Virus record (IMG/VR): IMGVR_UViG_3300015214_000028
Span: 1-64,000 of that record
DNA length: 64,000 nucleotides
Direction: 5' to 3' (one strand)
DNA from: a virus
Lineage: Duplodnaviria > Heunggongvirae > Uroviricota > Caudoviricetes
Part shown: positions 1,889-22,121 of the stretch, piece after piece
How positions within the stretch are numbered: position 1 is the first letter of the stretch
Layout: the number at the start of each line of letters is the position of its first letter
Translations under genes and position numbers: made by a program
Notes under the pieces: model-generated
What the model was told of the DNA's origin: nothing
What the model saw: only the letters and a program-made list of their open reading frames with translations
The model's database searches: none

Positions 1889-1966
1889 TTTATGTCCTTT
1901 TCAAATAAACTGCGAAGGGGGAACGAAAAAGGGGAAGCCCTAAGGCTCCCCCTTTCATGGGCTTAA

Positions 1967-3778: not shown

Positions 3779-4931
3779 CTTTTGATCCTGATGGTTTAGC
3801 TGCAGAGCCAGTAATATTGGCTGGAATTCTTAGTTTATCCGATTCTGGGGAAGGGTCTTTCGGATAACGCAACTCTAGACGCGCTTCATTGGGGGTGATT
3901 ACGCCAGTATTGACTAAGGTTCCTAAATAAGCAGCCTGAATATTAAGCTCTGGCCGTAGAGCTTCTGCACCCGAGGTATCCACTGAAATGTCATAGCCGA
4001 AGTACCTTTCAAAGGCACTAACAACTAATCTAGCCAGGGGTAGAATAGTTTCAACCCACATCAGCTTTTGATTTGGAGTAATATTGGCATTATTGCCTCC
4101 AAACAGTAGAATCGGCGGTACGCCAAGTGCAAGTAAAACAGATTCATCTATTGAACGAACTGAGCCTTCAAAATCTAACTCTTTGAATTTGCCTTCTCCA
4201 AGAGCTTTAACTTCTAGACCTCCGTCTAGAATAAGTGGTCGTTTTCCGCCACGTTTCGGGTTATACTCCCGAACCCAGTTCTCAATTAAACGATCCTTGA
4301 TCTTCTGTCCTAGAACGCTAGGAGACTGGATCACTAAGCCCGGGACCGCGTTATTCTTAAAGAAATTACGCTGGAACTCTAACATTTCTCCTCTAATATT
4401 AATTAGTTCAAGAAACGTCTTAGCTCTACTAGTCCCTCTAAAGATACTGTCCGAACCGTTGTCGCTTACGGGAATGATTTCCTCAGGATTAAATCGAATT
4501 GTGGAATTGTATTCGTAATAAGCAACAAGTGTTTTCGGATCAGTAACTACTTTAACATTCACCGCTGGTAGATGGTACATAAAAGCACCATCAAAGTGAA
4601 TATAGGCGTTACCTTCTAGTATTAAATCTAGATAGATAAGCCTTTTAAATCTTTCAATATCTTGATAAGGATTAGGACTAAATTGAATTAAAGTTTCTAA
4701 TTTAGCTTTCCTAATTGACACTACGCCCACACCATTCAGTTTACTAGTAACGTCGAATCCCAGGCTAGAAGCACCGTTAACAATTAAGTCAACACCGCGT
4801 CGAACAACTGGAATCTCGTTATAGGCTGAAACATGGCTAGCATAGCGGCGCGCGGTCGAGTACACTTCCCCGCTATCGCGGGAAATGACAGATTGCGCGG
4901 GGTTTAATTTAGTTCGCAACCATTGCAGCAT
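3762..4931 (-). CDS. portal protein (HK97-family size, 389 aa)
   Basis: Size and position between terminase/HNH and the protease-capsid gene; portal-like composition. Confidence 0.6.
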   Translation of the reverse strand: MLQWLRTKLNPAQSVISRDSGEVYSTARRYASHVSAYNEIPVVRRGVDLIVNGASSLGFDVTSKLNGVGVVSIRKAKLETLIQFSPNPYQDIERFKRLIYLDLILEGNAYIHFDGAFMYHLPAVNVKVVTDPKTLVAYYEYNSTIRFNPEEIIPVSDNGSDSIFRGTSRAKTFLELINIRGEMLEFQRNFFKNNAVPGLVIQSPSVLGQKIKDRLIENWVREYNPKRGGKRPLILDGGLEVKALGEGKFKELDFEGSVRSIDESVLLALGVPPILLFGGNNANITPNQKLMWVETILPLARLVVSAFERYFGYDISVDTSGAEALRPELNIQAAYLGTLVNTGVITPNEARLELRYPKDPSPESDKLRIPANITGSAAKPSGSKDDTND

Positions 4932-5274
4932 GCTTCTCTCTTTTTTTCTCTACCCATGCTGCTTGCTTCTTTGCAGTACCTAGGGCAGGTTTAAGCCCAT
5001 AAACTTTATGCAATAAAGCATGATCGCTTTTGCATAGAGTTACGACTTCTAAATATATTTCTGAATGATGTTCGGAGATAAATTCATCTCTAAAATCTAG
5101 AACATTTTCTTCAGAATAGCCCTTTTTCTTACACCATTTGTTAAACAAAGCAGTTAAGCTATTATAATGGTGCAACTCTAACAACTCACTAGTACCACAA
5201 ATCACACAGGAAGAATCCTTCTCATATGCGGACTTGCAGCGGTCGCGAATGTATTTTACGGGTAAACGTTTCAT
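4909..5274 (-). CDS. HNH endonuclease, packaging-associated
   Basis: CVICG ... ELHHYNS ... LCKSDHALLH = CxxC...HH...N...H. Lies between portal and TerL. Confidence 0.65.
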   Translation of the reverse strand: MKRLPVKYIRDRCKSAYEKDSSCVICGTSELLELHHYNSLTALFNKWCKKKGYSEENVLDFRDEFISEHHSEIYLEVVTLCKSDHALLHKVYGLKPALGTAKKQAAWVEKKREKHAAMVAN

Positions 5275-5320
5275 TTTCCTATATTCTACTAGACCCAGAA
5301 AATATTTTCAACCAAATTTT

Positions 5321-6622
5321 TCACACTGAAGAAATATCCCCTCTATACGTATAAAGTGCGTATCTAAGAGCATCGGCCATGTGTGAATAACGATCATGCA
5401 CAGGTTTTTGAACTATAAGTCCTTCACGAGGGTCCCAGCGATACTGATCTAAGCAAGCTAAAGTCTCTTTACAATGGGGCGCTACAAATAAACGACCTTG
5501 CTCTACTAAAGTCTGTACAAAAGCAATACCTTCTAGAACAGCTTTATTAGCATTTACAGTTGAGATATCGTACTCCATTGCTAGATCATACCTGAACTGC
5601 TGCGCTGAAGAATCTACAAATATATATTCAACACCATACTTCTCTTCTAAAGCTTTAATCGCATTAGCATGTACGGCAGTAGTAGCTTCTGACTTGTAAT
5701 ACTCATCAACTACATAAAACTTATCATCAACACAACTAATAACCGCTCCAGCAGTAGGATCCCTAAAGCCAAAGTCAACACCCATAATCACTTCGTCTAA
5801 AACGGGTGTTTCAGCAATATAGTCTGGAGAAAAGTTAAAGATCTGTCCTTCGAACACTGAGAAGGAAGCTTCGTACTCTTGCTCGAACTCACCTTTAGAC
5901 ATGCTAAGTCTAGCTTCTTCAATATCCGCTAAAGAAGCTCGGGGATTCTCTCTCCAATCACAGTGTAAAGAAACCCATTGTGGGTAAGTATCTAAAAATC
6001 CTCTATCAAAGAATCTAGAGAACCAATTCATTTTACCACGGGGTGTAGAGATGAAGATAGCTTTAGCACCTGGTTTATCTAGGGTAGGTCGCAGAGCTAC
6101 ATTAAAAGCTTCTTCTCCCGCAGTCGATAGTGCTGCTTCGTCAAATAGAATTAAATCGTATGAGCGACCTACTACAGAATCAACCTGCGAAACTGAGCCA
6201 GCACGAACGGTAGAACCGTTACTAAGCTCTAAAACTCTATCTTTGGCGTTATCCTTTTCAACTTCTAAAGCAAATGCTTTCAAGTAGCGACGCTGTAATT
6301 CAAAAGAAATACTAGAAAGAGAATAATTGGGCGACATAATTAATACATGACAGCCCGGGATTAAGCATATTAGTTGTGCAATCATATTACCAGCTGTAGT
6401 CTTCCCAACACGTCTAGAAAAAGCAGCAACTATAAAGCGATATTTGGGATTATTAACAGCATTAATTAAAGCAATTTGTGGTCTATTAGGATCACCACCT
6501 AAAACGCCTTTTTCTTTTGCTAAAGGGATATATTTCTTGATAGGAAGTTTTATAAACCTTTCTTCTAGTGGAAACTCTTGAAACTCATCTGCTGAAATAT
6601 CCGGTCTACTTATTTTCAACAT
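5321..6622 (-). CDS. terL: terminase large subunit
   Basis: Walker A SRRVGKTT; 433 aa; C-terminal nuclease-like region; gene position. Confidence 0.8.
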   Translation of the reverse strand: MLKISRPDISADEFQEFPLEERFIKLPIKKYIPLAKEKGVLGGDPNRPQIALINAVNNPKYRFIVAAFSRRVGKTTAGNMIAQLICLIPGCHVLIMSPNYSLSSISFELQRRYLKAFALEVEKDNAKDRVLELSNGSTVRAGSVSQVDSVVGRSYDLILFDEAALSTAGEEAFNVALRPTLDKPGAKAIFISTPRGKMNWFSRFFDRGFLDTYPQWVSLHCDWRENPRASLADIEEARLSMSKGEFEQEYEASFSVFEGQIFNFSPDYIAETPVLDEVIMGVDFGFRDPTAGAVISCVDDKFYVVDEYYKSEATTAVHANAIKALEEKYGVEYIFVDSSAQQFRYDLAMEYDISTVNANKAVLEGIAFVQTLVEQGRLFVAPHCKETLACLDQYRWDPREGLIVQKPVHDRYSHMADALRYALYTYRGDISSV

Positions 6623-7058
6623 CTAAAAGCTTTCCCATCAATTCCCCGTAATTAGTTCCTACAAAGGGATTATTAATTTGAATATTTGTCTGAGTTTTAG
6701 GGCCTGCTGCCAGTTTGGTAGCTATGTTCATTTCATCCATTTTCATTTTGTGCACTAAAGCTAAAATATCCATAATATCTTTAGTAGATCCAATATCTGC
6801 TTCCTGTAATTCCTCCAGCTTTTTCTCAACTATACTGTCTACAATTTCTGCAAACTTGAAACGATTTCTATAACCAGACTCAAAATAAATTCTATCAATA
6901 TAGCTCTTGACTTCTGGTAAGTCTAGATATTGATTCACCTGTTCCGGGTGAATGCCTAGTTCTCTAGCGGTCTGTTCCACGCTTCTAGTAAGGAGATACG
7001 TATTAGCGATTTCTAGCTCTTCTGGGGAAATAGGCACAATAGTATTTGGATTTGCCAT
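6606..7058 (-). CDS. terS: terminase small subunit (HTH DNA-binding)
   Basis: ARELGIHPEQV HTH-like motif immediately upstream of terL. Likely start is the ATG at 7058 (MANPNT); the track's TTG at 7094 lies inside the promoter -35. Confidence 0.55.
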   Translation of the reverse strand: MANPNTIVPISPEELEIANTYLLTRSVEQTARELGIHPEQVNQYLDLPEVKSYIDRIYFESGYRNRFKFAEIVDSIVEKKLEELQEADIGSTKDIMDILALVHKMKMDEMNIATKLAAGPKTQTNIQINNPFVGTNYGELMGKLLDVENK

Positions 7059-7065
7059 ATTTTGA

Positions 7066-7094
7066 AGTATAACACTGTCAATAAAAAATTTCAA
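7066..7094 (-). promoter_or_regulatory. sigma70-like promoter for terS/terL (-35 TTGAAA, 17-bp spacer, -10 TATACT) giving a leaderless or near-leaderless transcript
   Basis: Reverse complement reads TTGAAA ttttttattgacagtgt TATACT tcaaaat ATG. Confidence 0.5.
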
Positions 7095-7129
7095 CTACTT
7101 TTTTCGTACTGGGCCCGTTGTTGCTTCTT

Positions 7130-7222
7130 GAGTGCTCTGAGCCCCGGGTTACCTTCCAATATTTTCTTAAAGTTGTACGCGGGGCCACCAATTACTCAGC
7201 GTCGCTGAGCCCCGGGTTACTC
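7130..7222. repeat. two direct ~65-bp repeats, each containing CTGAGCCCCGGGTTAC and AATTTTCTTAAAGTTGTACGCGGGG
   Basis: Read directly at 7130-7160 and 7200-7260. The core is the same 17-mer that recurs at 12187-14181. Confidence 0.8.
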
Positions 7223-7286
7223 TGTAAATTTTCTTAAAGTTGTACGCGGGGGAGGGCGGTGCGGCGGTGCCGATAGAGCGAGTCTA

Positions 7287-7322
7287 TCAACCGCCCATGC
7301 CCGATAGGGTGAGCCTATCGGG
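7287..7322. repeat. perfect 15-bp-stem inverted repeat (CCCATGCCCGATAGG gtgagc CCTATCGGGCATGGG) just downstream of the minus-strand two-gene operon
   Basis: Read directly. Preceded by a second palindrome GATAGAGCGAGTCTATC. Confidence 0.8.
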
Positions 7323-7337
7323 CATGGGTCTTGCCTG

Positions 7338-7634
7338 CTACACCTGGCGCGCAGGCGCGAAGTTCGCGAGGTTCAGCACGTCCAATCGATCATGTTCGGG
7401 CCGGGCAAGTGCATCGACCAAACGAGCGAGGAATTCCGTCGCGCTGATGGTAACGTGCCCGCCAGACACAGGAAAATCTACTTGCACGCTAACGCGCTCG
7501 ATCGCGCCTGCGCGCTCTACTGCGCGATTCAATTGCCTGACAAACGAGCGCGCAGCGATGAAGGTCATACCCTGCCCGAACGGGCGCGGCTGGCCTACGG
7601 GCTTTCCGGCCGCGAAGATGGTAATCTGTGTCAT
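7338..7634 (-). CDS. hypothetical protein (98 aa) in a ~60% GC patch
   Basis: Track ORF; follows the upstream ORF with a 5-nt gap. Confidence 0.45.
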   Translation of the reverse strand: MTQITIFAAGKPVGQPRPFGQGMTFIAARSFVRQLNRAVERAGAIERVSVQVDFPVSGGHVTISATEFLARLVDALARPEHDRLDVLNLANFAPARQV

Positions 7635-7639
7635 GCTGG

Positions 7640-7918
7640 TTACTCCATCGAATAATCGGCACAGTAGCGCAGCGCGCTAATGACCCGTTCCACAATCTTG
7701 GCCTCCCTGACTGCCTTTACCGCACCCGCATACTCGCCTGCGCTAGCATCCGTGGACATGCTCAGCAGGGTTTCTTCATGAAAGCGCACGTCGGACTCAG
7801 CCTTTGCTTGGGTAGAGTACAGAAGGTCTTCTACGCGCTGGCGCGCGGCGTTCAGTTCCTCATAAGCGACTTCACCCAGACCGAACATATGAGCTACGAA
7901 TGTGACAGTTGCCTTTTG
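7640..7918 (-). CDS. hypothetical protein (~93 aa; start ATG at 7918 with RBS GGAGGTAGG)
   Basis: The reverse complement of 7921-7935 gives GGTGGAGGTAGGAAA before the ATG. The track's longer 170-aa version runs back into AT-rich non-coding DNA. Confidence 0.45.
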   Translation of the reverse strand, partial: QKATVTFVAHMFGLGEVAYEELNAARQRVEDLLYSTQAKAESDVRFHEETLLSMSTDASAGEYAGAVKAVREAKIVERVISALRYCADYSME

Positions 7919-8357
7919 CATTTTCCTACCTCCACCCAATGCAGTGAAACCGGTCGGTTTCCTCGTTTGCTGCATCAGAGACTTAACTATAGCAAAGCAT
8001 TTTAACCCTGCAAAGCGGAAAATTGTAACAAATTGTAACTGTTGTTTTTTCACCACACGCGCCCGATGGGCACTCTTTCCCACTAATAACATTATACACG
8101 CTAGAAAAACCGTGTCAAGCAAAATATTTTTGCTCGTTCCGAAAATGAACATGTCTGATTTTGCCTAGTCTGTTTTACTGCCCTGGTCAAGCATTATTTT
8201 CTGCCTAGCATGTAACGATGTTATCGTCAAGACATATCGCGCCGAAAACACAAAACCTGGTAGCTGTCAAGTATTCCGCACTAAAATGCAAGGGTATTGC
8301 ATAGCATCTAAAAAGTATGCTAGACTATGGGTTATTGCATTAAATAGGCTATTCACC

Positions 8358-8741
8358 ATGCTAAAGAATCTTGACCTTGAAACCTTCTACCGTGCTGTAT
8401 CGCACTATTGCGAAGTTTTGCAGATTGATGAAAGTATGGTAGAATTCGAGTTTAGCAATCTTCGGCGCAATGCTAAATTATGGGGCGCTTGCATCAATGA
8501 CATTGATTGTGTTACAATCGAGATTGATAAAAGTTTGTCGCGCAAAAACACGCTAAAAACTCTAGCGCATGAGCTAGTGCATGCAAAACAGTTTTTAGAA
8601 GGTGAGCTAGACTGTATCGGGGATTATTGGATTTGGCACGGTGAAATTGTGTTAGAATCCTATGAGAATGAACCGCACGAAATAGAAGCTAACAGTCTCG
8701 AAAACGTGCTATACTCTAGTTTTATGGAAGCGAACCGATGA
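8358..8741 (+). CDS. HExxH zinc-metallopeptidase-like protein (ImmA/SprT-like; paralogue of 26173..26571)
   Basis: LAHELVHAKQF motif; ATG at 8358 in the track-ORF frame. Confidence 0.5.
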   Translation: MLKNLDLETFYRAVSHYCEVLQIDESMVEFEFSNLRRNAKLWGACINDIDCVTIEIDKSLSRKNTLKTLAHELVHAKQFLEGELDCIGDYWIWHGEIVLESYENEPHEIEANSLENVLYSSFMEANR

Positions 8742-9217
8742 AAATTGCAATTTTCGATCTGGACGAAACCGTTATTAATTCGTCGCATCGCACGCCGAAT
8801 AATCCCGATGGCACCCTTAACCTTGATGCTTACATTGCAAGGCATACACCGGAAAACGTGAGGAAAGACAAGGTTTTGCCGCTTGCCGAAACTATGCGCA
8901 GACTGTATAATATGGGCTGGCAGATTTTTGTTCTGACTGCTAGGGATATGAAACCTTGCGACTATGAATACCTCGCAAGGCATAATCTACCTTATCATCG
9001 CATTTTCTCGCGCGATCAAGCAAAGCCTGAACATTATAGGCTTTCCGATGGCGAATATAAAAAGCGCTGGATTCAAAAGCTGCTAAATCTTCGCCAATAC
9101 CGGAGCGCTTATGTTATAATGTTTGACGATAGCAGCAAGGTTAAATCTGCGCTGCGTCGATTCTTTCCGGTACTTTGCGCGCATAAGGTAAATGCGAAAA
9201 TCGGAACGGTTAAATAG
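8738..9217 (+). CDS. HAD-superfamily phosphatase (5'-deoxynucleotidase or PNK-phosphatase-like; resembles T5 dmp)
   Basis: N-terminal FDLDETV (DxDxT motif); 159 aa. Confidence 0.6.
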   Translation: MKIAIFDLDETVINSSHRTPNNPDGTLNLDAYIARHTPENVRKDKVLPLAETMRRLYNMGWQIFVLTARDMKPCDYEYLARHNLPYHRIFSRDQAKPEHYRLSDGEYKKRWIQKLLNLRQYRSAYVIMFDDSSKVKSALRRFFPVLCAHKVNAKIGTVK

Positions 9218-9283
9218 CACTACCGTTAAAACGTGCTATAATGGCTCTTCCTGATTGACGATAAACGAACTGAGGGAAACAAA

Positions 9284-10849
9284 ATGATCGAAGCTAAAAT
9301 TGCACTGCGCATTCGCGGCGCTTTCCGGTTGCGCAAACCCGAAAGCATTGATTCTGCTATTGCCGACGTTGCCGAGGAAATTGGCGCGGATGTTAACGCG
9401 GTTCGGGAAGTTTACAATACCGAACGTGCACGGTTGGACGCGGCACGGATCGAGCGGATTCGGAAGGCGGAAAGCAAACCCGTTTCGGGCGGCGCGTTGC
9501 GCCCGGATTATTCTGCGGAAGATTACCCTGGTCCAATCATCGTCACCGCCGCGCAAAATAACACGGAAGTGGCAGAAGCTTTCTGGGATAACCTTGTCGG
9601 GTATGCGTCCAGCATTGGGGCTAAAATCATTGTCGCACCGATTCTGTATAATAAATCGGCATGGAATCAGCCCGATGACATGACTGGACAAGATATTTAC
9701 TTTGACCCCAAGGTCAAACCCTATATGCGCGATGATCGGTTTACCGTTCACGGTGTAGCGGTATTGGCTAACGCTCATGTTTTGCCGACGTCCAAGAATC
9801 CGTTGTCGGGTTTTGAATCGGCCACGGGTGCTGGACAGTCTATCGTCATCCCGGCCAGTAAAATCTCTCTTAAAACGATGCCACGCCTTAAGGGTGAACC
9901 GCTGAAAATTGTTCAATCTACGGGCACGGTTACGGTATGCAACTATGTCCAGCGCAAGGCCGGAACGGTATCCGAGTTGGAGCACAATTACGGGTTTACC
10001 GTGATTGAATCCGGCGGAAAAGTTCGATCGGTAGAATGTATGAATCCTGATGCCGGCGGGTTTTTTGATTTTGACGGGGAGCATGTAAACGAACAAGGCA
10101 TTGAGTACCCTGATAACCCGGCTGCGCTGGTTTTTGGAGATATTCACGCCGAAAAGCTGCCGCTGGAACGGCTTAATGCAATCTCGGCACTAGCGCGAAA
10201 GGTCAATCCGTGCAATGTCATTTTCCACGATATTCTAGACTTTTCGAGTCGGAACCATCACAATCGGGAGTCTAGTCTCTTCCGCTTTGTGGCGGATTCT
10301 ACGGGCCAGTCAGTGGAAAGCGATATTGAAAAGGTCGCTAACGTGCTAGACTGTTTCCCAAGCTATGCTCCTATTGTGGTTGACTCCAACCATGACAGAG
10401 CGCTTGAACGTTGGCTGGATGAGGCAGATTATCGCGAGGACTCACAAAACGCGATTTTCTTTTTGGAATTGCAGCTTGCACGATACCGTGCGGCAAACTG
10501 TGGACAAGAGCCTATTAACCTGCTAAAATACGCTTTGACCAAGCGTTTCGGCAGGGATTTTAATGCTACTTTCCTGAAGCCTGATGAAAGCTGCAAGGTA
10601 GAAGGTATTGAATGCGGCAATCATGGCGACCGTGGCCCTAACGGCGCTAGGGGAAGTTTGCAAGCATTCCGGGCAATTGGCGAATCTATGGTGATCGGAC
10701 ACTCCCATAGTCCGGGCATTGCCGGCAAAGTGTATCAGGTCGGGGTTTCGGGCAGCCTTGAAATGGGGTACAATGTTGGACCGTCGTCTTGGGCGCATGC
10801 TCACTGTATCATTTTCGCCAATGGACAACGGCAAATGATTTTCGAGTAA
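9284..10849 (+). CDS. large protein with a C-terminal calcineurin-like (Mre11-type) metallophosphoesterase domain; resembles T5 pre-early A1
   Basis: Motifs VFGDIHAE, HDILD, DSNHD, ECGNHGDRG, VIGHSHSP; 521 aa. Confidence 0.55.
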   Translation: MIEAKIALRIRGAFRLRKPESIDSAIADVAEEIGADVNAVREVYNTERARLDAARIERIRKAESKPVSGGALRPDYSAEDYPGPIIVTAAQNNTEVAEAFWDNLVGYASSIGAKIIVAPILYNKSAWNQPDDMTGQDIYFDPKVKPYMRDDRFTVHGVAVLANAHVLPTSKNPLSGFESATGAGQSIVIPASKISLKTMPRLKGEPLKIVQSTGTVTVCNYVQRKAGTVSELEHNYGFTVIESGGKVRSVECMNPDAGGFFDFDGEHVNEQGIEYPDNPAALVFGDIHAEKLPLERLNAISALARKVNPCNVIFHDILDFSSRNHHNRESSLFRFVADSTGQSVESDIEKVANVLDCFPSYAPIVVDSNHDRALERWLDEADYREDSQNAIFFLELQLARYRAANCGQEPINLLKYALTKRFGRDFNATFLKPDESCKVEGIECGNHGDRGPNGARGSLQAFRAIGESMVIGHSHSPGIAGKVYQVGVSGSLEMGYNVGPSSWAHAHCIIFANGQRQMIFE

Positions 10850-10963
10850 AAGTGGAACGGGGTGATTGACTCATCCCAGTCACTAGGTTATACTTCTTTC
10901 ATCGGTTCAGCGAATAGCGCGACGTTGAACCGATACCCTAAACCGCGCTAAAAGGGCTTTATC

Positions 10964-11308
10964 ATGAGCAAAGAAAAAGTGGCAGCGTATTCAATCGAGC
11001 AAACTTCGGAACTGGTCGAGGCTTACAAAGCCGACCCGACTCAAGAGACTGTTGCGATTTTTGCGGAACGGTTCGGAAAATCTGCCCGGTCGGTTATCGC
11101 GAAGCTTACTCGGGAAGGCGTGTATATCAAAAAGACTTACACCAGCAAAACGGGTGAACCTGTTATCAAAAAGGATGACATTGCCGACAAGATCGGTGCG
11201 CTTGTCGGGCTGGCGGATTCCGAAGCTGATTCGCTTGCGAAAGCTAATAAATCCGCGCTGAAGAAAATTTATGCACGGCTTACCGGATCGGGCGCGGATT
11301 CCGAATAA
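10964..11308 (+). CDS. small HTH-motif protein (A2-like); member of a paralogous family
   Basis: Motif ARSVIAKLTREGVYIKK is shared with 15894..16238, 37469..37828 and the three repeats in 40736..41472. Confidence 0.5.
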   Translation: MSKEKVAAYSIEQTSELVEAYKADPTQETVAIFAERFGKSARSVIAKLTREGVYIKKTYTSKTGEPVIKKDDIADKIGALVGLADSEADSLAKANKSALKKIYARLTGSGADSE

Positions 11309-11364: not shown

Positions 11365-11673
11365 ATGTCTCGAAAATACCAAAGCTTTAGATATCGAACA
11401 GCTATGTGCAGCATTGCTCAGGCTAATGGTGCGGTAGCTTGTCGCAAGGGTTTGACCGTAGCAATCGTTCCATGCCTTGAAGGCGCTTTCAATCCGAAGT
11501 TCTATAAGGTAGCAGTTGCTCACTGTAGTGACTCGGATGAATTTGACTATAGTCGCGGCGTGATTATTGCAGAAAATCGGCTTTGTTGCGACAACTTTAT
11601 CACGTTGCAAAACCCTTTTCCCGGTTCACCGCCACAACGCGCAGCGGAGTATTTTGCCTCGATGCTAGTCTAG
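11365..11673 (+). CDS. hypothetical protein (102 aa)
   Basis: Track ORF with RBS AAAGG; followed by a terminator. Confidence 0.4.
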   Translation: MSRKYQSFRYRTAMCSIAQANGAVACRKGLTVAIVPCLEGAFNPKFYKVAVAHCSDSDEFDYSRGVIIAENRLCCDNFITLQNPFPGSPPQRAAEYFASMLV

Positions 11674-11684
11674 GTTCCTAGCGT

Positions 11685-11716
11685 AAGCCCCAATTCTAAT
11701 TGGGGCTTTTCTTTTG
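11685..11716 (+). terminator. rho-independent terminator
   Basis: AAGCCCCAA ttctaa TTGGGGCTT followed by TTCTTTTG. Confidence 0.7.
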
Positions 11717-11751
11717 CCCGGTACTGTAAATGCTTCGCATTCGCCAGATGA

Positions 11752-11983
11752 AAATGATTCTCATTTGCTCGCGCCGATTTTACACCTGGTTGGCCAGCAC
11801 GTCAAGCCCGGGTACTCTAAACGAGAATGATTCTCATTCAGGCGCCGATTTTACACTACACTAGAACACTTGTCAAGCCGTGTTACAATTAACACGGGGT
11901 GTAGCATATGGGGCAAACTGGTACGCTTTTTGCTTTCGTTAAACGCGAACGATTCTCATTCTCAAACGCGAACGATTCTCATT
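11752..11983. repeat. four operator-like palindromes (A)AATGATTCTCATT(T/C), two followed by GCGCCGATTTTACAC
   Basis: Copies at about 11752-11766, 11825-11839, 11948-11960 and 11971-11983. Confidence 0.75.
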
Positions 11984-12020
11984 CTCATTTCTTTTTGCCA
12001 AAATACCCGAAGGGTATTTT

Positions 12021-12140
12021 GCGCCCGCGAGAGTGAGAAATCAACGCCAAATTTTCCGTGTCGCCGCGCCCGCGCGAGTGAGAAATCAATGACAAAATTC
12101 CGCGCCCGCGCGAGTGCGAGATCAACGTGAAATTTTACAT
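12021..12140. repeat. three tandem ~38-bp direct repeats (GCGCCCGCG(C)GAGTG(A/C)GA(A/G)ATCAA(C/T)G..AAATTTT), iteron-like
   Basis: Read directly. The track ORFs 11870..12130 and 12127..12318 are most likely non-coding repeat DNA. Confidence 0.75.
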
Positions 12141-12184
12141 GCTAGAGTGCAAAGTCAAGTCGAGTTTTCCCCCGCTAAAGCAAC

Positions 12185-12610
12185 ATAACCCGGGGTGCAG
12201 CGATCATAGCAATCATAGCAATCCTAGCAATCGCGGCAACCACAGCAACCACAGCAAGCCTCACACTAAAGCAGCCCTAGCAACTTCCCGTAGCCCTCAC
12301 AGTAGCCCAAGCCGCTAAAGACTTTACGCCCCGGGCTACTCTATGAGCCCTCTAAGCCCGCTAAAACCTCTGAGCCCCGGGTTAAAAAATAGCCCGGGGT
12401 GTAGCGATTGATTCAATGCCCCAAATCTAAACAGTAACCCGGGGCTCAGCGATTTTAGTAAGCTAAAAAATATCCCAGACTAAAGAAGTAGCCCGGGGCT
12501 CAACGATTTTAGCAAGCTAAATGCACTCAAAGAACTAAAAAGTAACCCGGGGTTCAGCAATTGAACCGGCTTCAGCAATTGAACCGATCTTTGAGCCCCG
12601 GGTTACTTTG
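12185..12610. repeat. cluster of at least eight copies, in both orientations, of a 17-25-bp element GTAACCCGGGG(C/T)(T/G)(C/T)AGC(G/A)ATT, plus tandem 9-mers (TAGCAATC / CAACCACAG) at 12196-12262
   Basis: Copies near 12187, 12337, 12369, 12390, 12434, 12488, 12542 and 12591. Confidence 0.85.
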
Positions 12611-12960
12611 TGAAGGTGACTAAAAATTATTTTTGGCCAAAAAATTGAATTTTAAATTGTATTACGCAGGCGTTTTTTGCCGACTTTATATGGTAATCAA
12701 TAAATTAATTGATTTAAAACTCAGTAATTGAAAAAGAACTCTTAGCTTAAAAAAGGGGGGGATAAATTGTCCAGTAACAACAACGGAGCAAAAAATTTCA
12801 GCGCTAAATTTCAAAAAATAACGAAAATTTTTTTAAAAATAGTCGAAAAAAGCTGAAAAAACTTTGAAATTTGAATTAATTAAACTAAAAAGGCAGTAGT
12901 CTAATTTGAAATAAGTTAATTTAAAAAAGAGACTAGTCTGAAAAATACCCCCTGTCTAAT
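12611..12960. other. extremely AT-rich non-coding tract (candidate DNA-unwinding element or spacer) with no ORF above 60 aa
   Basis: Long A/T runs, e.g. aaaaattatttttggccaaaaaattgaattttaaattg. Confidence 0.6.
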
Positions 12961-12961
12961 A

Positions 12962-13090
12962 AGTAACCCGGGGCTCAAAATCTGAAAAAATGCTAAAAAT
13001 TTATTAATTCTTTTGTAATCTAATTAACCCGGGGCTCAGAGGTTGAAAAGGTTTTAATAGCTAAAGAAGTAACCCGGGGCTCAGCAATTC
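12962..13090. repeat. three more copies of the GTAACCCGGGGCTCA element
   Basis: Near 12962, 13026 and 13069. Confidence 0.85.
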
Positions 13091-13272
13091 AATAAACTAA
13101 GAAATCCCCTAAAATTGGGAGACCGGGGTTACAGTGGTTAGCTTATTAGTTGTATACCGTTTAATACGTTTAGTAATGAAAAAACGCGTAGTATACGTCA
13201 AAAGAAAAAGTCAAGCAAATTTTTAGTTATTACATTTTAAATATGTATAGGTTCCCCCAAGGTTAGATTGCC

Positions 13273-13390
13273 AGGAAAATCGCCTTAATATCGCAAGAAG
13301 AATTTTTTGCGCGGGCTCTTTAATAGCACCGGCGGGGGGACCCCCCGGCTATTAGCCCTCGCAAAATTCTTTTGCTCTAGCGATTTTCCT
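13273..13390. repeat. ~115-bp imperfect palindrome (AGGAAAATCGC ... GCGATTTTCCT) centred on a G7/C6 hairpin CCGGCGGGGGGACCCCCCGGC
   Basis: Read directly. Lies between convergent gene blocks. Confidence 0.75.
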
Positions 13391-13460
13391 TAATTCTGTC
13401 GAATTTCGTCAATCTATCCTTTATTATACCACATTTTTTTTTTAATTTCAACTCGATTTT

Positions 13461-14042
13461 TCATTCTGGCTTAAAATCCCAGTCTGTAGGGCTTAAAATC
13501 ATTTTAGGATGCCTGATATCCGGATGATAGATCCACATCTCTAGTAACATGTATCTCAACATCTTAGGAAGTTTATCGAAGAGTGTTCCAGTCTTTTCTA
13601 GTGAACCGTACTTTTTAGGGTCTGGCATTTGTGATCTATATTGTTCTAGCTTGTCTTTAGGCGGGATTGGGTATGGCATTAGTAGCCAAGTTAGCGACTC
13701 TGTTAGGAAAGTTGCTAGCTGGTTATTTTTTACCCAATCGTTATATTTGAAGTCGTAGTAGCTCATAAATAGCGGAACACCAGAAGAAAGTTCTGGTTTG
13801 TAAGTCATAGCAGGCTTTAGTAATTTTGAGCGTGGAATTACTGCGACTTGTTCTACTAGACTGATTAGGTTTTCTGGTGCTTTAGAATACCACTCTTCTG
13901 CGTTTGGGGTGTCTAGTGGTACGGTTTTTACTACCGATTCTAGCCAAGGAAAGAATTTTGGATCTTCCTTTACTTTCTTTTGTAGATCTTTATCTAGCTC
14001 TAGGAGCTTTATGTTGCCTTGTACGAAATATTCAATTTTCAT
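13461..14042 (-). CDS. hypothetical protein (193 aa)
   Basis: Track ORF. Confidence 0.5.
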   Translation of the reverse strand: MKIEYFVQGNIKLLELDKDLQKKVKEDPKFFPWLESVVKTVPLDTPNAEEWYSKAPENLISLVEQVAVIPRSKLLKPAMTYKPELSSGVPLFMSYYDFKYNDWVKNNQLATFLTESLTWLLMPYPIPPKDKLEQYRSQMPDPKKYGSLEKTGTLFDKLPKMLRYMLLEMWIYHPDIRHPKMILSPTDWDFKPE

Positions 14043-14074
14043 TTTAGTTCCTTAGGGGTGTAGCTGGTGTAGCG

Positions 14075-14181
14075 AGTAACCCGGGGTGTAGCGGGTTTAG
14101 CGATTGCAGTGGTTGCTTGAGTGTAACCCGGGGCTCAGCAATAGTCTGGGGTGTAGCAAGTGCTACACCCCGGGTTACAGT
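14075..14181. repeat. three more CCCGGGG-element copies; the last sits in a perfect hairpin GGGGTGTAGC aagt GCTACACCCC
   Basis: Read directly; upstream of the minus-strand gene 13461..14042. Confidence 0.8.
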
Positions 14182-14828
14182 TAGCAATTAACAATTTCCC
14201 ACCCAAAGTTATCGTCAGTGTAGCCTCTAGGATTTGATACTACTCTAGTGTTATTTATAGTGTAATCACACTTAAAGTGGGTGTGTCCATGAATCCAAAG
14301 CTTTGGCTCATGGTCTAGATAGGGGCTATACGGATTAAAGATATCAGTATAGAAAGCTTTGCTTAGAGGAGCTGAACGATACTCTGGTGCTACAGAAAGA
14401 ATACTAGGAGCATGATGAGTGATAAACACGTCAGCATTAGAAGTGTTTAGAAACTCTAGATCCTTTTGGAATTCTTCATTCCATTTTAGCTTTTTAATGT
14501 ACCTAAAATCATTCATGCCTTCTTTAGCTACTAGATAGGCCATAGGGTTACTAAGGTCTGTCCAAAGAGTAGCACAAGCAAATCTTACTCCTTTAAACTC
14601 AAAGATTTCTCTATTCTTTATTAGTGGGTGGTACTCATCATACTTACGACCATAGTACTCATGATTACCAGCTACATAAAGAATTGGCCCATCAAACTCT
14701 AGCGGGAGCCAAGGATTGCTTAGTGAGCAAATATCCCCCGCGAGCACGCAAATATCCGCCGGAGGCGGAAGCTTGCGCATTGGGGTAAATTCGGTGTGCA
14801 GATCTGATGCGTATGTAATTGTTAGCAT
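14181..14828 (-). CDS. calcineurin-like metallophosphoesterase (Ser/Thr-phosphatase-like)
   Basis: Motifs DLHTEF, LAGDICS, VAGNHEYYG, FITHHAP, IHGHTHF. Confidence 0.65.
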   Translation of the reverse strand: MLTITYASDLHTEFTPMRKLPPPADICVLAGDICSLSNPWLPLEFDGPILYVAGNHEYYGRKYDEYHPLIKNREIFEFKGVRFACATLWTDLSNPMAYLVAKEGMNDFRYIKKLKWNEEFQKDLEFLNTSNADVFITHHAPSILSVAPEYRSAPLSKAFYTDIFNPYSPYLDHEPKLWIHGHTHFKCDYTINNTRVVSNPRGYTDDNFGWEIVNC

Positions 14829-15047
14829 TTTTCAGATCCAAAACTTATTACATTCATTTTAATTTCTCCAAGGTTATAATATATTATAGCCGTTTAAAAA
14901 GAAAAAGGCAAGCTGTAAATAGCTTGCCTTTAGTTGGGTTAAAGAGGTTTTCAGTTTAGGGTGTCGTCATCATCATCATCTTCATACTCACCCTCAAAAA
15001 TTTCTTCCTCTATATTTTGCAAACACCCGTATATCTCACATATAGGA

Positions 15048-15233
15048 TTAGAGCATAGACAGATCATAGTCGCACTTCCTAATAATAAAGGATTCGTCAT
15101 CTAGAATTTCAAGTTCTAGTATGTCCCTTTCTTTCCACCCTAGCTGCTCAATAATCTCATCTGGTATTGGAAGAATTAATTCTCCGCTAGAATCAACCTC
15201 TAGTTCTACGTAAATTTCATTCATAAGCATCAT
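15048..15233 (-). CDS. hypothetical small acidic protein (61 aa)
   Basis: Track ORF. Confidence 0.35.
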   Translation of the reverse strand: MMLMNEIYVELEVDSSGELILPIPDEIIEQLGWKERDILELEILDDESFIIRKCDYDLSML

Positions 15234-15714
15234 CCGTTCTAAACGCTAATTCTGGCATACCCACAGCGGTTGGCCCACTCGGACGGTACCCGTCAAAATA
15301 GGGCTTGATTTTCCACCCGAATCTAAAATAAAGCCTAAACTTAGAGGTTTCTAGAATAATAAAGAAAAAGTCAAATGCCTTACCGTTGCTATAAAGAATG
15401 AAAGGGCCCTTTTCTTTTCTAGAAATATTGTCTAAATCTTTAGTTGCTAGTTTGAACCTTGCACCATATGCTTTATTTCTCCATAACCACCAAACCCTGG
15501 CAGCATAGCTTCCGTATTTCTCTTGAATTTTTAGAAGCTGTTTTTCTCCTCCAAAATCAGTTAAACTAGTATCTGGAGTACCCATCCAAGTAAAGGGTGG
15601 AAGTAGCTTACCGTTTTTTACTCTTAGTGCTGCTACAGGTGCTAGGGCTAGCGATACTGCTTGAGCAGTTAAGCTAGCGGCATTAACTACTAGTGCTTTT
15701 AGAAATGGTTTCAA
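15217..15714 (-). CDS. hypothetical protein (165 aa)
   Basis: Track ORF. Confidence 0.4.
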   Translation of the reverse strand: MKPFLKALVVNAASLTAQAVSLALAPVAALRVKNGKLLPPFTWMGTPDTSLTDFGGEKQLLKIQEKYGSYAARVWWLWRNKAYGARFKLATKDLDNISRKEKGPFILYSNGKAFDFFFIILETSKFRLYFRFGWKIKPYFDGYRPSGPTAVGMPELAFRTDDAYE

Positions 15715-15901
15715 TTTTTACCTCCAACTCTTCTATCTTTTTTAGACATACCTCAATTGCTTGAGCAGCATTATTAGCATGCTCTGCTAGTGCTTGAATA
15801 GCTTTTCCATGGTCTAGAATACACTCACTTTGTTGACTAGTAAGTTTGGAAAAGGCGTCTAGTACACTGTGTACTTCTTCTTTTAGTTTTTTGTTAAACA
15901 T
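15683..15901 (-). CDS. hypothetical coiled-coil protein (72 aa)
   Basis: Track ORF. Confidence 0.35.
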   Translation of the reverse strand: MFNKKLKEEVHSVLDAFSKLTSQQSECILDHGKAIQALAEHANNAAQAIEVCLKKIEELEVKIETISKSTSS

Positions 15902-16238
15902 TAACTACCTTAAGGGACTCAATAACTTCAGGATCAATGGCTTTTAGCAAGTTCCTTAAAGTTTGTTTTGGTGCTTTCTCTAACCCTTCTAGATCTGCTG
16001 AAATCAGGGCTAGAGAGTTAGCGATCAGTTCTACGTATTCATCTTTACTGGTGGGGATTTCTCCAGTTTTAGTAGTATACTTTGGTTTTTTGTAAATTCC
16101 TTCCCTAGTAAGTTTTGCAGCTACTTGTCTAATGGTTCTGTCCCATTTTTTAGCAAGTAGTTCCACAGTTCTAGGGTAGGGATTCTCTGTGTAAAGCTTT
16201 ATATAGTCTAGTGTTTCTTCGTCTGAATATCGTTGCAT
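15894..16238 (-). CDS. HTH-motif family protein (paralogue of 10964..11308)
   Basis: VAAKLTREGIYKKPKYTTKTGE closely matches VIAKLTREGVYIKKTYTSKTGE. Confidence 0.5.
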   Translation of the reverse strand: MQRYSDEETLDYIKLYTENPYPRTVELLAKKWDRTIRQVAAKLTREGIYKKPKYTTKTGEIPTSKDEYVELIANSLALISADLEGLEKAPKQTLRNLLKAIDPEVIESLKVVNV

Positions 16239-18933: not shown

Positions 18934-19347
18934 ATGGAAAAATACGATTTTGAAGGGGCCTTTTCTACAAAAAGCTCTATTATGACAAAAAATGAACTAC
19001 TAGAATTATCAGCAAAGCTGCTAGGCATTGATATCTTTCGTTCTAGCGAAACATATTTATTCTATGATAAATACGATAAATACGTTATCTGGAACCCTCT
19101 AAACAATAATAACCAAGCTATGCAGCTTATGGCTGACTATAGACCAAGTCTAATGGTAGGAATAAATAAGTACATAGACGTAGAAGTATTTTATAGGAAT
19201 AATGAGGGGTTTCTAGAGTTTAAGAACTACGAAGTTTGGTATCAGGACTACCCTTCTGTAGAGGCAGCTATTCGCTACGCAATTGTTCTAGGCGCAGCTG
19301 AGGCGTACAAGCTAAGAATGGAGTACAGTAATGCGAACACTCTATGA
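18934..19347 (+). CDS. hypothetical protein (137 aa)
   Basis: Track ORF. Confidence 0.45.
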   Translation: MEKYDFEGAFSTKSSIMTKNELLELSAKLLGIDIFRSSETYLFYDKYDKYVIWNPLNNNNQAMQLMADYRPSLMVGINKYIDVEVFYRNNEGFLEFKNYEVWYQDYPSVEAAIRYAIVLGAAEAYKLRMEYSNANTL

Positions 19348-19367
19348 TAGCAAGGAGAAAAAACGAA

Positions 19368-19664
19368 ATGACTAACATCACTATCAACGGCGTCGAGTAC
19401 GCCCCCGTCAATCGCGTCACCGGCACGCGCGCAGTCGTTGTTGTTGACCGAGGCTGGATCTTTGCCGGCGACGTGACCCGCGAGAATGGCCGTATCCGAC
19501 TCAGCCGTGCGGTACACGTGTTCCGCTGGGAGTCCATCGGGTTCGCAAAGATGATTGAGACTGAACAAGCCGATCTGCGGCCAATCGCCGACGTTGACAT
19601 GCCGGCCGATGCGGAGATTTTCTGCGTGCCTGTTCACGAGGGATGGGGTCTTAAAAATGACTAA
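19368..19664 (+). CDS. hypothetical protein; first gene of the high-GC island
   Basis: RBS AAGGAGA precedes the ATG at 19368 (MTNITINGVEY...). GC above 60%. Confidence 0.45.
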   Translation: MTNITINGVEYAPVNRVTGTRAVVVVDRGWIFAGDVTRENGRIRLSRAVHVFRWESIGFAKMIETEQADLRPIADVDMPADAEIFCVPVHEGWGLKND

Positions 19665-19956
19665 CCCAATCATGGGGCCGATTGGTTACGGCTACAGCAA
19701 CGGCTACGGCTACGGCTACAGCTACAGCTACAGCTACGGCTACGGCTACGGTGACGGTGACGGTGACGGCAACGGCTACGGATACGGATACGGCGACGGC
19801 AACGGCTACGGTGACGGCAACGGCTACGGCTACGGATACGGCGACGGCAACGGCTACGGCGACGGCTACGGCTACGGCAACGGCAACGGCAGCGGCTACG
19901 GCTACGGCGACGGCTACGGCACAATCAACTCCACGTCGCGGAGGCGGAGGACGTGA
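19657..19956 (+). CDS. Gly-Tyr/Gly-Asp/Gly-Asn dipeptide-repeat protein (~100 aa; (GY)n(GD)n(GN)n), encoded by a (GGCTAC)n hexanucleotide array
   Basis: ATG at 19657. Translation MTNPIMGPIGYGYSNGYGYGYSYSYSYGYGYGDGDGDGNGYGYGYGDGNG...GTINSTSRRRRT, stop at 19954-19956. Confidence 0.5.
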   Translation: MTNPIMGPIGYGYSNGYGYGYSYSYSYGYGYGDGDGDGNGYGYGYGDGNGYGDGNGYGYGYGDGNGYGDGYGYGNGNGSGYGYGDGYGTINSTSRRRRT

Positions 19957-20351
19957 TCCGCGACGAACTGCAGGCTCTTGCAGACGAGCTCGAATCGAAT
20001 CTGTATCACCGTGCCGCCGCTGTCCTGCGGCAAATTGCAGATGCGAAACCGGTTGCATGGCGCTGGATGTATAAGGGAAAGCCTGAGCCTTACGCTCTTG
20101 GAGGAAGCCTCTGTTTTGACGGTACCGGCCCCGATGCTGATATCGAGGCACGAGGAGCAGCAGCCGAACATCCTCGCACAGTACAGAGGCTCTACGCCCT
20201 ACCCCCTGCACTCCGCATGCCGGAGCCGATGACGAGAAGCGAAATCAGCGACTACGCACGAGTGATGGTGAAGGACAATAGGTCGGTAGATTGGCTGGTT
20301 ATGCAGATCGAGGCCGAAACCCTTCACCGAGTGAAGGAGATGAACGAATGA
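19953..20351 (+). CDS. hypothetical protein (132 aa; GTG start overlaps the upstream stop)
   Basis: Track ORF in the high-GC island. Confidence 0.4.
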   Translation: MIRDELQALADELESNLYHRAAAVLRQIADAKPVAWRWMYKGKPEPYALGGSLCFDGTGPDADIEARGAAAEHPRTVQRLYALPPALRMPEPMTRSEISDYARVMVKDNRSVDWLVMQIEAETLHRVKEMNE

Positions 20352-21202
20352 ACCGACCCCTTGTGATCTACCACGGCAACTGCGCGGACGGCTTTAGCGC
20401 AGCTTGGTGTTTCTGGCGCAAGTACGGCGCCGGCGCTGACTACGTTGCAGGCGTGTACCAGCAAGCTCCGCCTGACGTGGCCGGGCGCGACGTGTACCTG
20501 GTGGACTTCAGCTACAAGCGCTCCGTGGTGGAGCAGATGCTGGCGCAGGCGCGCAGCGTGTGCTTAATCGACCACCACAAGACCGCCATTGAAGACTTGC
20601 AGCCGCTGTTCATGCAGGATTCGTGGGCGGGGGAGCCGAAGCAACTGGCGCACTTCACCGACTTGAACCGGAGCGGTGCCACGCTGGCGTGGGACTACCT
20701 GTTCCCGGGCGAAGACCGGCCGCTCCTGCTGGGCCATGTGGAAGACCGCGACCTGTGGCGCTTCAAGCTGCAGGGCACGCGCGAGATTCAGGCGTTCATG
20801 TTCTCGCACGAGTACAGCTTCGAGCTGTGGGACAAGCTTATGAGCGCCGATCAGGTGGAACTGCTGAAGATGACCGCAGCCGGTGCCGCCATCGAGCGTA
20901 AACACCACAAGGACGTGGCCGAGCTGGTGGCTGTGTGCAAGCGACGTATGGTGATCGGCGCCCATGATGTGCCCGTCGCGAGTCTTCCGTACACGATGGT
21001 TAGCGATGCCGCGCACCTGATGGCGCAGGGCGAGCCATTCGCGGCGTGCTACTGGGACACCGCCGAAGGTCGCGTGTTCGGCCTGCGCTCCTCCGACGAA
21101 GGCGTGGACGTATCTGAAGTGGCAAAGCAGTACGGCGGTGGCGGCCACGCCAAAGCGGCCGGATTCATGGTGCCGCGTGGTCACGTTCTAGCGGTGGCGT
21201 AA
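20348..21202 (+). CDS. DHH/DHHA1-family phosphoesterase (NrnA-like nanoRNase / pAp- or cyclic-dinucleotide-phosphodiesterase-like)
   Basis: Motifs LVIYHGNCADGFSAA, LVDFS, CLIDHHKT (DHH), and C-terminal QYGGGGHAKAAGF (DHHA1 GGGH). ATG at 20348 shares its A with the upstream stop (ATGA). Confidence 0.65.
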   Translation: MNRPLVIYHGNCADGFSAAWCFWRKYGAGADYVAGVYQQAPPDVAGRDVYLVDFSYKRSVVEQMLAQARSVCLIDHHKTAIEDLQPLFMQDSWAGEPKQLAHFTDLNRSGATLAWDYLFPGEDRPLLLGHVEDRDLWRFKLQGTREIQAFMFSHEYSFELWDKLMSADQVELLKMTAAGAAIERKHHKDVAELVAVCKRRMVIGAHDVPVASLPYTMVSDAAHLMAQGEPFAACYWDTAEGRVFGLRSSDEGVDVSEVAKQYGGGGHAKAAGFMVPRGHVLAVA

Positions 21203-21230
21203 TGCTGCGCCGAGTCAAGGAGGTGAACAA

Positions 21231-21458
21231 ATGAAAGGAACTGAAATGAATGTGAGCGTCGAACAGTTGAGCGACGGAGATCGTGTCCGCTTGCACCCGA
21301 ACTCGGACAACCCGATTCACAAGCAGCCGGTGTATGCAACGTACTCGCAGGGATACTTCTTCTGCGATGGAAGTGGCCCTGCGGATGGTCCCGACTACTT
21401 CTTCCGCGACGTGCTGACATTCAATGACCGCATTGAGTTGATTGTCACCAACAGGTAA
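21231..21458 (+). CDS. hypothetical protein (75 aa)
   Basis: Track ORF; high GC. Confidence 0.4.
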   Translation: MKGTEMNVSVEQLSDGDRVRLHPNSDNPIHKQPVYATYSQGYFFCDGSGPADGPDYFFRDVLTFNDRIELIVTNR

Positions 21459-21494
21459 GTCAATTCCTAAGCGCTACGAGAAGGAGAGGAACAA

Positions 21495-21731
21495 GTGAGC
21501 AAGATAAAAAACGGCGGTCCGGCTTACCCAGCGGTTGATATTGTTCCCGGAGTAAATTACAATTCTTCAACCGAAATCTATTACAAGGGCATGACCCTGC
21601 GCGATTGGTTTGCAGGACAGGCACTAGTCGGGCTATCTATTCGACGTGAAGGCGAGTGCGATGCAGACGACGCCGAAAACGCTTACAGACTCGCAGACGC
21701 CATGCTCAAGGCAAGGGAGGTGAACAAGTGA
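21495..21731 (+). CDS. hypothetical protein (78 aa; GTG start with a GGAG RBS)
   Basis: Track ORF; last gene of the high-GC island. Confidence 0.4.
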   Translation: MSKIKNGGPAYPAVDIVPGVNYNSSTEIYYKGMTLRDWFAGQALVGLSIRREGECDADDAENAYRLADAMLKAREVNK

Positions 21732-21794
21732 GCATCGAACTAATCGAAGCAATCGGGGTATGGATAGTACTGCCGGTAACGTGTAGGAGTTAAA

Positions 21795-22121
21795 ATGATG
21801 CATAAAAATGCCTGGCTTCGTGTTATTGACGAAGCTCTAGTAACTTCTGGGCTAGAGTTTGCTAGCCCTAATGATTCATATGAAGAGGCTAAACAAAAAT
21901 TAAATGATCTGATTTGTTGGAATATTTCAGTGGCTGTTGATCCGGTACTTGCGGAGCAACTATCAGAAGAAGAAATACTAGAAGCTATTAGCCCTTTCTA
22001 CAGCACTAGATTATTAGCTATTATGGGACTGGAAGGGGGCCTGCCTGAGTTTAGAGAGATCGAAAGGGCGGTACTACACAAACTGTATAATACCTTTTCC
22101 AAAAAGAAATTTGGGGCTTGA
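21795..22121 (+). CDS. hypothetical protein (108 aa)
   Basis: Track ORF; composition returns to AT-rich. Confidence 0.45.
   Translation: MMHKNAWLRVIDEALVTSGLEFASPNDSYEEAKQKLNDLICWNISVAVDPVLAEQLSEEEILEAISPFYSTRLLAIMGLEGGLPEFREIERAVLHKLYNTFSKKKFGA

Follow-up and report, generated by a model that had tools for sequence, protein, structure and literature searches.

The 64,000-nt stretch analyzed here (hereafter the window) is positions 1 to 64,000 of the uncultured Caudoviricetes record IMGVR_UViG_3300015214_000028, and it contains a repeat-rich region that an original prediction, made from the letters alone, had proposed as a replication origin, an injection-stop locus or a terminal-repeat boundary. 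The phage is also represented by an 86.9-kb metagenome contig (ERZ27247376 k141_1857324). In three independent assemblies of the same DNA, no gene is called between positions 11674 and 13460 (1787 bp), and the flanking genes converge on this interval, the plus-strand gene ending at 11673 and the minus-strand gene at 13461; the region is thus gene-free and lies between convergent gene blocks, as had been proposed. Two further assemblies (ENA and Logan) carry the identical 1787 bp, which rules out an assembly artefact, and the region is single-copy in the assemblies. Four small open reading frames (ORFs) within it match no PHROG or other family, and a search of the region against Rfam returned only sub-threshold chance matches and no family. 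The palindromes, tandem 9-mers, CCCGGGG elements and AT-rich tract described earlier were all found at their coordinates, and every repeat family of the region occurs far above the shuffled expectation.

Directly upstream of the region, the plus strand encodes homologues of the T5 proteins Dmp, A1 and A2. The dmp-like 5'-deoxynucleotidase gene (8738-9217) matches Pfam PF26880 (Phage_T5_dNMPase), with 32-39% identity by tblastn to dmp of T5, Slocum and Rocket24. The A1 homologue (9284-10849; phrog_1745, E=4e-147) is 36-39% identical by tblastn to its counterparts in T5-like phages, with 83-100% of its length aligned; its best match among 50,697 phage records shows 37-39% identity, and all the top matches are T5-like phages. 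The A2 homologue (10964-11308; phrog_1725, 8e-5) aligns with A2 of T5, Slocum and Rocket24 across their common conserved columns, and the A2 orthologue of a relative from the same sample (L006) gives a weak match to PF26822 (Phage_T5_A2). In T5, A1 is the DNA transfer protein required for second-step transfer and A2 is a dimeric DNA-binding protein. The last ORF of the operon (11365-11673, plus strand, 102 aa) has no family match, and a predicted rho-independent terminator at 11685-11708 (plus strand; a 10-bp stem followed by TTCTTTT) would close the operon. Ahead of these genes lies a minus-strand block with a protease-capsid fusion, the portal, a T5-type nicking endonuclease, the large terminase and a T5-type small terminase. 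On these sequence comparisons, the phage is a new, tRNA-rich and very distant T5-like phage recovered from a metagenome.

The arrangement follows that of T5 closely. In the T5 record (NC_005859), the left terminal repeat spans 1-10219, the plus-strand pre-early genes end at 9157 and are followed by a terminator at 9275-9296, the injection stop signal (iss) is annotated as a misc_feature at 9140-10149, and the major nick is placed at 9748/9749. With 1778 bp, the gene-free stretch of T5 (9158-10935) is nearly as long as that of the window (1787 bp), and convergent minus-strand early genes begin at 10935. The minus-strand genes for capsid, portal, TerL and TerS precede the right repeat in T5 and the pre-early module in the window, so that both share the order capsid<-portal<-terL<-terS, pre-early genes, gene-free region, convergent early genes. 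Both gene-free regions are about 1.78 kb of non-coding DNA with a terminator at the start, convergent early genes at the end, and nested repeats and palindromes between; in the window, an imperfect palindrome or hairpin of about 110 nt (13273-13390, minus strand; -60.5 kcal/mol, z=-5.1) lies downstream of the convergent early operon. Because order, geometry and gap size all match, the region occupies the exact place of the T5 iss, or Repeat Region 3: it is non-coding, dense in repeats and placed where the pre-early genes end, with convergent flanks and with A1, A2 and dmp in one module. L006, whose A1 is 52% identical, likewise has a 3.2-kb gene-free multi-repeat region after A2 (12219-15423), built from other repeat families; judged from its sequence, the architecture is kept and the sequences are not. 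The L006 repeats comprise 12 tandem 17-mers (ATTGGCTAGAAAATCCT), 167-bp repeats and four copies of CTATAATGAACGGGTATTCAATAGA.

Four 19-bp palindromes of 9-1-9 form, with full sequences of the type AATGAGAAT-N-ATTCTCATT, lie just beyond the terminator (11747-11765, 11820-11838, 11942-11960 and 11965-11983). Their shared pattern, (A/G)A(A/T/C)(T/C)GATTCTCATT, occurs at 11752, 11825, 11947 and 11970, and matches the 64-kb window five times at up to two mismatches, with 0.37 matches expected. The window palindrome AATGATTCTCATT is the exact reverse complement of the DRE motif of the T5 iss, AATGAGAATCATT. The same repeat finder, applied to the T5 gap, located AATGAGAATCATT at 9587, 9610 and 9656, and at 9697 on the opposite strand. 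Moreover, the last two window palindromes form a perfect 23-bp tandem (11941-11987; units at 11941 and 11964), and T5 has a perfect 23-bp DRE tandem at 9574/9597. With four copies and the identical 23-bp tandem, the window array belongs with the T5 DRE repeats. At up to one mismatch, the motif was confined to the gap region both in the 64 kb of the window and in the initial 13 kb of T5. A cluster of the motif also directly follows the A2-containing operon in three relatives identified through their A1, namely L005 (86% A1 identity), L009 (50%) and L041.

The first two palindromes are each followed by GCGCCGATTTTACAC (at 11771 and 11842), and the -10 elements of two minus-strand promoters of the sigma-70-like type (11876-11848 and 11805-11777, with 11/12 and 10/12 consensus matches) fall inside this repeated sequence. 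Each of the two palindromes is positioned at about +4 to +24 of one of these promoters. The arrangement TTGAC-N-TAnnnT is enriched in the region (two found, 0.31 expected), and from their sequence the elements between 11777 and 11876 may function as promoters.

About 40 bp past the last palindrome, a hairpin with a 9-bp stem (AAAATACCC/GGGTATTTT; 12000-12024, minus strand) is followed by GCGC on the plus strand. In T5, the 7.9% nick is at an A/GCGC adjoining the palindrome AGGGCAATTGCCCT, also about 40 bp past the last DRE box, and in L041 a similar hairpin is followed by GCGCC. The window element is therefore a candidate counterpart of the T5 nick site, and a T5-type nickase gene is present in the window. 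The published T5 nick consensus is R/GCGCRGG; RGCGCRGG occurs at five sites in the window, none of them in the gap region, and for this reason the parallel is only a lead. An independent contig of the same phage (L004) terminates exactly at 12024, just after TATTTTGCGC; a nick, a physical end, variation in the number of iteron copies or coincidence might each account for this.

Beyond the hairpin lie three direct repeats or iterons (12016-12141, plus strand; starts at 12021, 12066 and 12102; none expected) with the core GCGCCCGCG(C)GAGTGAGAAATCAA, each of which includes the TGAGAA half-site of the palindrome. The three copies reported earlier are real, but the length of 38 bp given for them is approximate: the core measures 24 nt and the spacing is 45 and 36 bp. 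Tandem 9-mers of the CAGCAATCA type follow (12198-12257, plus strand; 6.7 copies by the repeat finder), as do elements of the sequence TAACCCGGGGCTCAG, which contain CCCGGGG and occur in both orientations between 12186 and 13084 (nine good and about two weaker copies). Seventeen matches to TAACCCGGGGCTCAG were found in the window and 0.83 were expected. A proximal cluster (12186-12605) has a nested inverted arrangement with a predicted single-strand fold of -64 kcal/mol (z=-6.9), and the element scan placed three elements in a distal cluster on the plus strand (12964-13084). The gap of about 355 bp between the two clusters (12606-12963) is the AT-rich tract, with 25-30% GC in a genome of about 40%, and a step down in GC occurs at 12.4-12.6 kb. 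The CCCGGGG cluster was confirmed, but five further copies beyond the coordinates given had been overlooked (7137, 7205, 14077, 14124 and 14163). Two of these lie, in opposite orientation and one in each unit, within two 68-bp tandem units just upstream of terS (7126-7296), after which comes a GC-rich block, GTACGCGG...CCGATAGAGCGAGTCTATCAACCGCCC (7241-7296), with 79% identity to L006; the other three lie between two early genes (14077-14177). The 15-mer TAACCCGGGGCTCAG element is the sole repeat seen in both the gap region and the 7.1-kb edge. Elsewhere, TAACCCGGGGCTCAG was not found in IMG/VR, and its matches in JGI metagenomes were single and unrelated, without clusters; it thus appears private to this lineage.

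T5 also has a dispersed family of 13-15-mers in two clusters about 350 bp apart. In T5 and Slocum, the DRD repeats (GTGCAAATCCGAC) form two clusters separated by a gap of 330-370 bp that contains the mapped repeat end, and T5 has an extra DRD copy at 12154 within the early genes, like the window elements at 14077-14177. The window family has the two-cluster layout but a different sequence; moreover, the T5 repeat runs one way, whereas TAACCCGGGGCTCAG is found in both orientations. The iterons, the 9-mers and the extreme AT tract are additions of the window relative to T5. By analogy with the DRD repeats, a terminal-repeat boundary within the gap region is plausible, as the original prediction had suggested: the right end of the repeat is predicted in the AT-rich tract, at about 12.6-12.96 kb, with the left edge near 7.1-7.3 kb, and the units at 7126-7296 may mark the left edge of the pre-early or terminal-repeat module.

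We consider it probable that the region is a divergent T5-type injection-stop and terminal-repeat-end region, corresponding to T5 Repeat Region 3 in position and, in part, in sequence. What was observed directly is the homology of the genes, their synteny and convergent geometry, the common motif with its phasing and the repeat statistics, and with dmp, A1 and A2 upstream and the DRE motif in common with T5 these observations support the suggestion that a T5-like injection-stop locus ends the pre-early region here. It also speaks for this reading that IRD'-IRC' and DRE are named as the iss candidates in T5 and that the shear point is assigned to this portion of the repeat array, to DRE2 in a figure legend and to DRD2 in the discussion (Davison preprint). 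The earlier comparison with T5 holds for the DRE motif, the 23-bp tandem and the layout, but does not extend to similarity at the level of blastn.

Several findings weigh against this assignment. By blastn, the region matched none of the 50,697 phage records, and a sensitive local blastn against the T5 iss also gave no match. The dmp-A1-A2 operon is inverted relative to T5 and abuts the gap region. No consensus DnaA box (TTWTNCACA) occurs in the gap region, where two 8/9 near-matches coincide with -10 elements; there is also no LexA-type CTGT-N8-ACAG palindrome in it, and strict DnaA, LexA and IHF sites are absent from it or at chance level. A counterpart of IRD'-spacer-IRC' was not seen, with no dedicated search for a 131-bp inverted partner. 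The nick consensus, as noted, is missing from the region. In T5, paired DnaA boxes inside IRD'-spacer-IRC', which has an inverted partner upstream, are central to the current model (Davison preprint); the mechanism of the T5 iss is itself unexplained. At the equivalent place in L006 and in Vibrio phage Rocket24 the palindrome array was not found, and in Serratia phage Slocum it is degenerate. Although conserved widely, the array is thus not found throughout the family, and for that reason cannot be the sole stop determinant. Finally, for the window phage both the terminal repeat and the injection pause are read from the analogy with T5.

With regard to the sites absent from the window, T5 (L010) has a perfect CTGTATAAATATACAG palindrome at 9411-9430, adjoining the DnaA-box pair of its iss. 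This palindrome has the form of a LexA (SOS) box. Palindrome and DnaA-box pair are both kept in Rocket24 (L131, about 205-300).

If the analogy holds, injection in the window phage would proceed in two steps. The leading DNA entering the cell would carry dmp, A1 and A2, with transcription stopping at the terminator at 11685-11708. Beyond it, the four phased 19-bp palindromes would serve as a platform for a binding protein, either a host regulator of the Fur type or the dimeric A2 of the phage. Transfer would pause here, and the accumulation of A1 and A2 would restart DNA entry. Next would come the GCGC-plus-hairpin element, possibly the site of a nick, then the iterons and some 12 lineage-private elements, nested and inverted in their order. 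These elements would bracket the AT-rich gap, the probable place of the terminal-repeat end, and the 110-nt hairpin would close the convergent early operon.

Why T5 DNA stops after 8% has entered has been a question since the 1960s. Earlier comparisons all involved close relatives, which conserve the whole region, so that no element could be singled out. With A1 at only 37-39% identity, the window phage is distant enough for nearly the whole region to have been replaced. Three things have survived: the array of 19-bp palindromes, phased at 23 bp, the GCGC-plus-hairpin element 40 bp further on and the two-cluster layout of the dispersed repeats. The only sequence common to both regions is the phased array of palindromes matching Fur sites. 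The DnaA boxes on which the current model is based are not among the survivors; they, together with IRD'/IRC' and the T5 nick consensus, appear from the sequence to have been replaced by lineage-private iterons, 9-mers and TAACCCGGGGCTCAG elements. The absence of DnaA boxes here weakens them as a general stop determinant. The value of the region is therefore comparative: a long-unexplained signal is narrowed to a few short, testable elements and a candidate binding protein, Fur.

The resemblance of the palindromes to Fur boxes raises a first alternative. The Xanthomonas Fur consensus is a 19-bp sequence of 9-1-9 form, AATGAgAATcATTctCATT (PMC1790865), and the E. coli consensus is GATAATGATAATCATTATC, as quoted in the same article (PMC1790865). 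The window palindromes have this length and symmetry, and their letters are nearly the same: scored against the Xanthomonas and the shifted E. coli-type consensus, the four copies match at 16, 17, 15 and 15 of 18 positions, all within 240 bp. By the same scoring, T5 copies reach 17 and 17 of 18, and L041 has 18/18 three times. Elsewhere in the window there are two matches at 14/18, and shuffled sequences give 1.9 matches at >=14/18 per 64 kb. The 13-mer of the palindrome is listed among Fur boxes for Acinetobacter, Listeria and Xanthomonas, and also occurs in papers on siderophore biosynthesis. The palindromes could then be true Fur operators acting as an iron-status switch or a Fur decoy. Occupied in iron-replete cells, the first two, at about +4 to +24 of the sigma-70-like promoters, would repress two antisense promoters; alternatively, amplified phage DNA would titrate Fur, and host iron uptake would be de-repressed. 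Either variant is compatible with a role in stopping injection. However, the array of the smaller environmental phages does not overlap a good promoter, the nearest one being 200-350 bp away. The phage sites also differ from Fur boxes in that they lie in non-coding DNA, in phased arrays with a period of 23-30 bp; such arrays, and exact-core pairs with a 23-bp period in particular, are rare among the bacterial genome matches sampled. The array is missing from some T5-like phages, and the phage's own dimeric DNA binder, A2, is an equally good candidate ligand. The Davison preprint makes no mention of Fur or LexA, and a literature search for a link between Fur and T5 or phage terminal repeats found nothing relevant. 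On balance, we regard true Fur operators as a doubtful possibility.

IMG/VR was scanned for two copies of AATGAGAATC placed 8-20 nt apart, which returned at least 119 stretches. Among the matches listed, a gap of 13 nt, equivalent to a 23-bp period, was found in 56 of 153, and 43 of the loci with this period lack nucleotide similarity to T5. In bacterial genomes, scanned in the same way, 7 of 146 sampled matches had a 13-nt gap, and the gap lengths peaked at multiples of three. We rejected the palindrome pair as a general bacterial feature, its matches there being scattered, with multiple-of-three gaps (coding repeats) and no 23-bp preference. Thirty-four sequences combine the motif with a T5-type terL (31 IMG/VR loci, L009, T5 and the window), again among the matches listed, and the array lies upstream of the 5' end of terL in every one of them; in 27 of the 34, the two are 0.9-2 kb apart. 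The window, with 5.1 kb, and T5, with 13.2 kb, have the pre-early genes in between. Such a position, in many uncultured phages, ties the array to the terminase-proximal end of the genome. About 30 of the uncultured contigs among the matches listed carry the array 0.9-2 kb upstream of a T5-type terL and have neither A1 nor nucleotide similarity to T5; the IMG/VR array loci (L012-L130) include L112 (3440-3600), L025 (26-84) and L084 (3217-3275). The first gene past the array in the IMG/VR loci encodes an AT-hook protein of about 130 aa.

Two proteins were considered as partners of the array. The A2 profile matches only 12 of the 119 loci among the matches listed, by which A2 is neither supported nor excluded as a universal partner. 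A T5-type small terminase was rejected, since the proteins of about 130 aa encoded by the arrays show an AT-hook only.

The position near terL could indicate that the array is a packaging or terminus signal, read together with the other repeats by the T5-type terminase or a partner that cuts concatemers and so makes the terminal repeat; its place in the leading repeat copy would then be a by-product. The 34 sequences with the array upstream of terL, the 23-bp period favored in viral contigs and not in bacterial genomes, and the T5 array, which in the right-hand copy of the repeat is some 510 bp away from the physical end of the DNA, are all in keeping with such a signal. Yet in those phages the candidates for the small terminase are AT-hook proteins, for which no similarity to the T5-type protein was detected, and a fixed DNA site is hard to reconcile with TerL proteins of down to 25% identity, unless a host factor reads the site. 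The enrichment of the motif near contig ends is weak (33%, against 20% expected), and contig ends carrying the motif were accordingly rejected as physical termini. We find a packaging signal improbable.

Both sets of observations could be joined in a broader proposal, namely that T5-type injection-stop regions have as their conserved core an array of phased sites for Fur or a Fur-family protein, and that this array also marks terminase-adjacent DNA in many uncultured phages. This proposal strikes us as unlikely. If it were true, an abundant host metalloregulator, and hence the iron state of the host, would hold, mark or time incoming or packaged phage DNA, and T5 (with Fur-like, DnaA and LexA-like sites) and the window phage (with Fur-like sites only) would be two versions of a landing pad for host proteins.

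Iteron-containing origins of the plasmid or lambda type combine direct repeats with a nearby AT-rich tract. The region is gene-free and dense in repeats of the kind bound by proteins, and its three iterons, which would bind an initiator, lie about 500 bp from the strongly AT-rich tract of about 350 bp (25-30% GC), which would unwind; but the reading as a classic origin proposed earlier is not supported, and an origin is very improbable, in view of the lack of DnaA boxes in the gap region, of flanking genes that are A2 or have no PHROG or Pfam match, so that no initiator was recognized, of replication genes 20-40 kb distant, of iterons that the relatives open to examination do not share, and of a homologous T5 region that is the iss and not an origin. 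In T5, the origins lie near the genome center, and the first step does not yet involve expression of replication functions (Davison preprint).

Other features of the window were noted. A second A2 paralogue (114 aa; 15894-16238, minus strand) lies at the far end of the minus-strand early block, and L009 and L041 also have two or three A2 paralogues, some with an adjoining palindrome. The head protease (Peptidase_S78) and the major capsid protein form one ORF of 603 aa (1967-3778, minus strand); they are separate genes in T5. Fifteen tRNA genes are present. A segment at 19000-22000 has 56% GC in the genome of about 40% and includes a repetitive GGC-rich coding stretch, where the assemblies disagree (97.7% identity between L002 and the window). 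A GC island (58-62%) at 7150-7750 covers a minus-strand ORF of 98 aa with no family match, and corresponds to a GC peak of L006 at 7750-8050. Lastly, a promoter-bearing segment of about 65-120 bp (8004-8125) contains a perfect TTGACA-16-TATAAT on the minus strand (8118-8091) and is duplicated in relatives, at 22-158 and 1157-1209 in L005 and at 8260-8324 and 12262-12325 in L006. The L006 copies are direct repeats that flank the dmp-A1-A2 operon, an arrangement reminiscent of the IRC/IRD pairs of T5.

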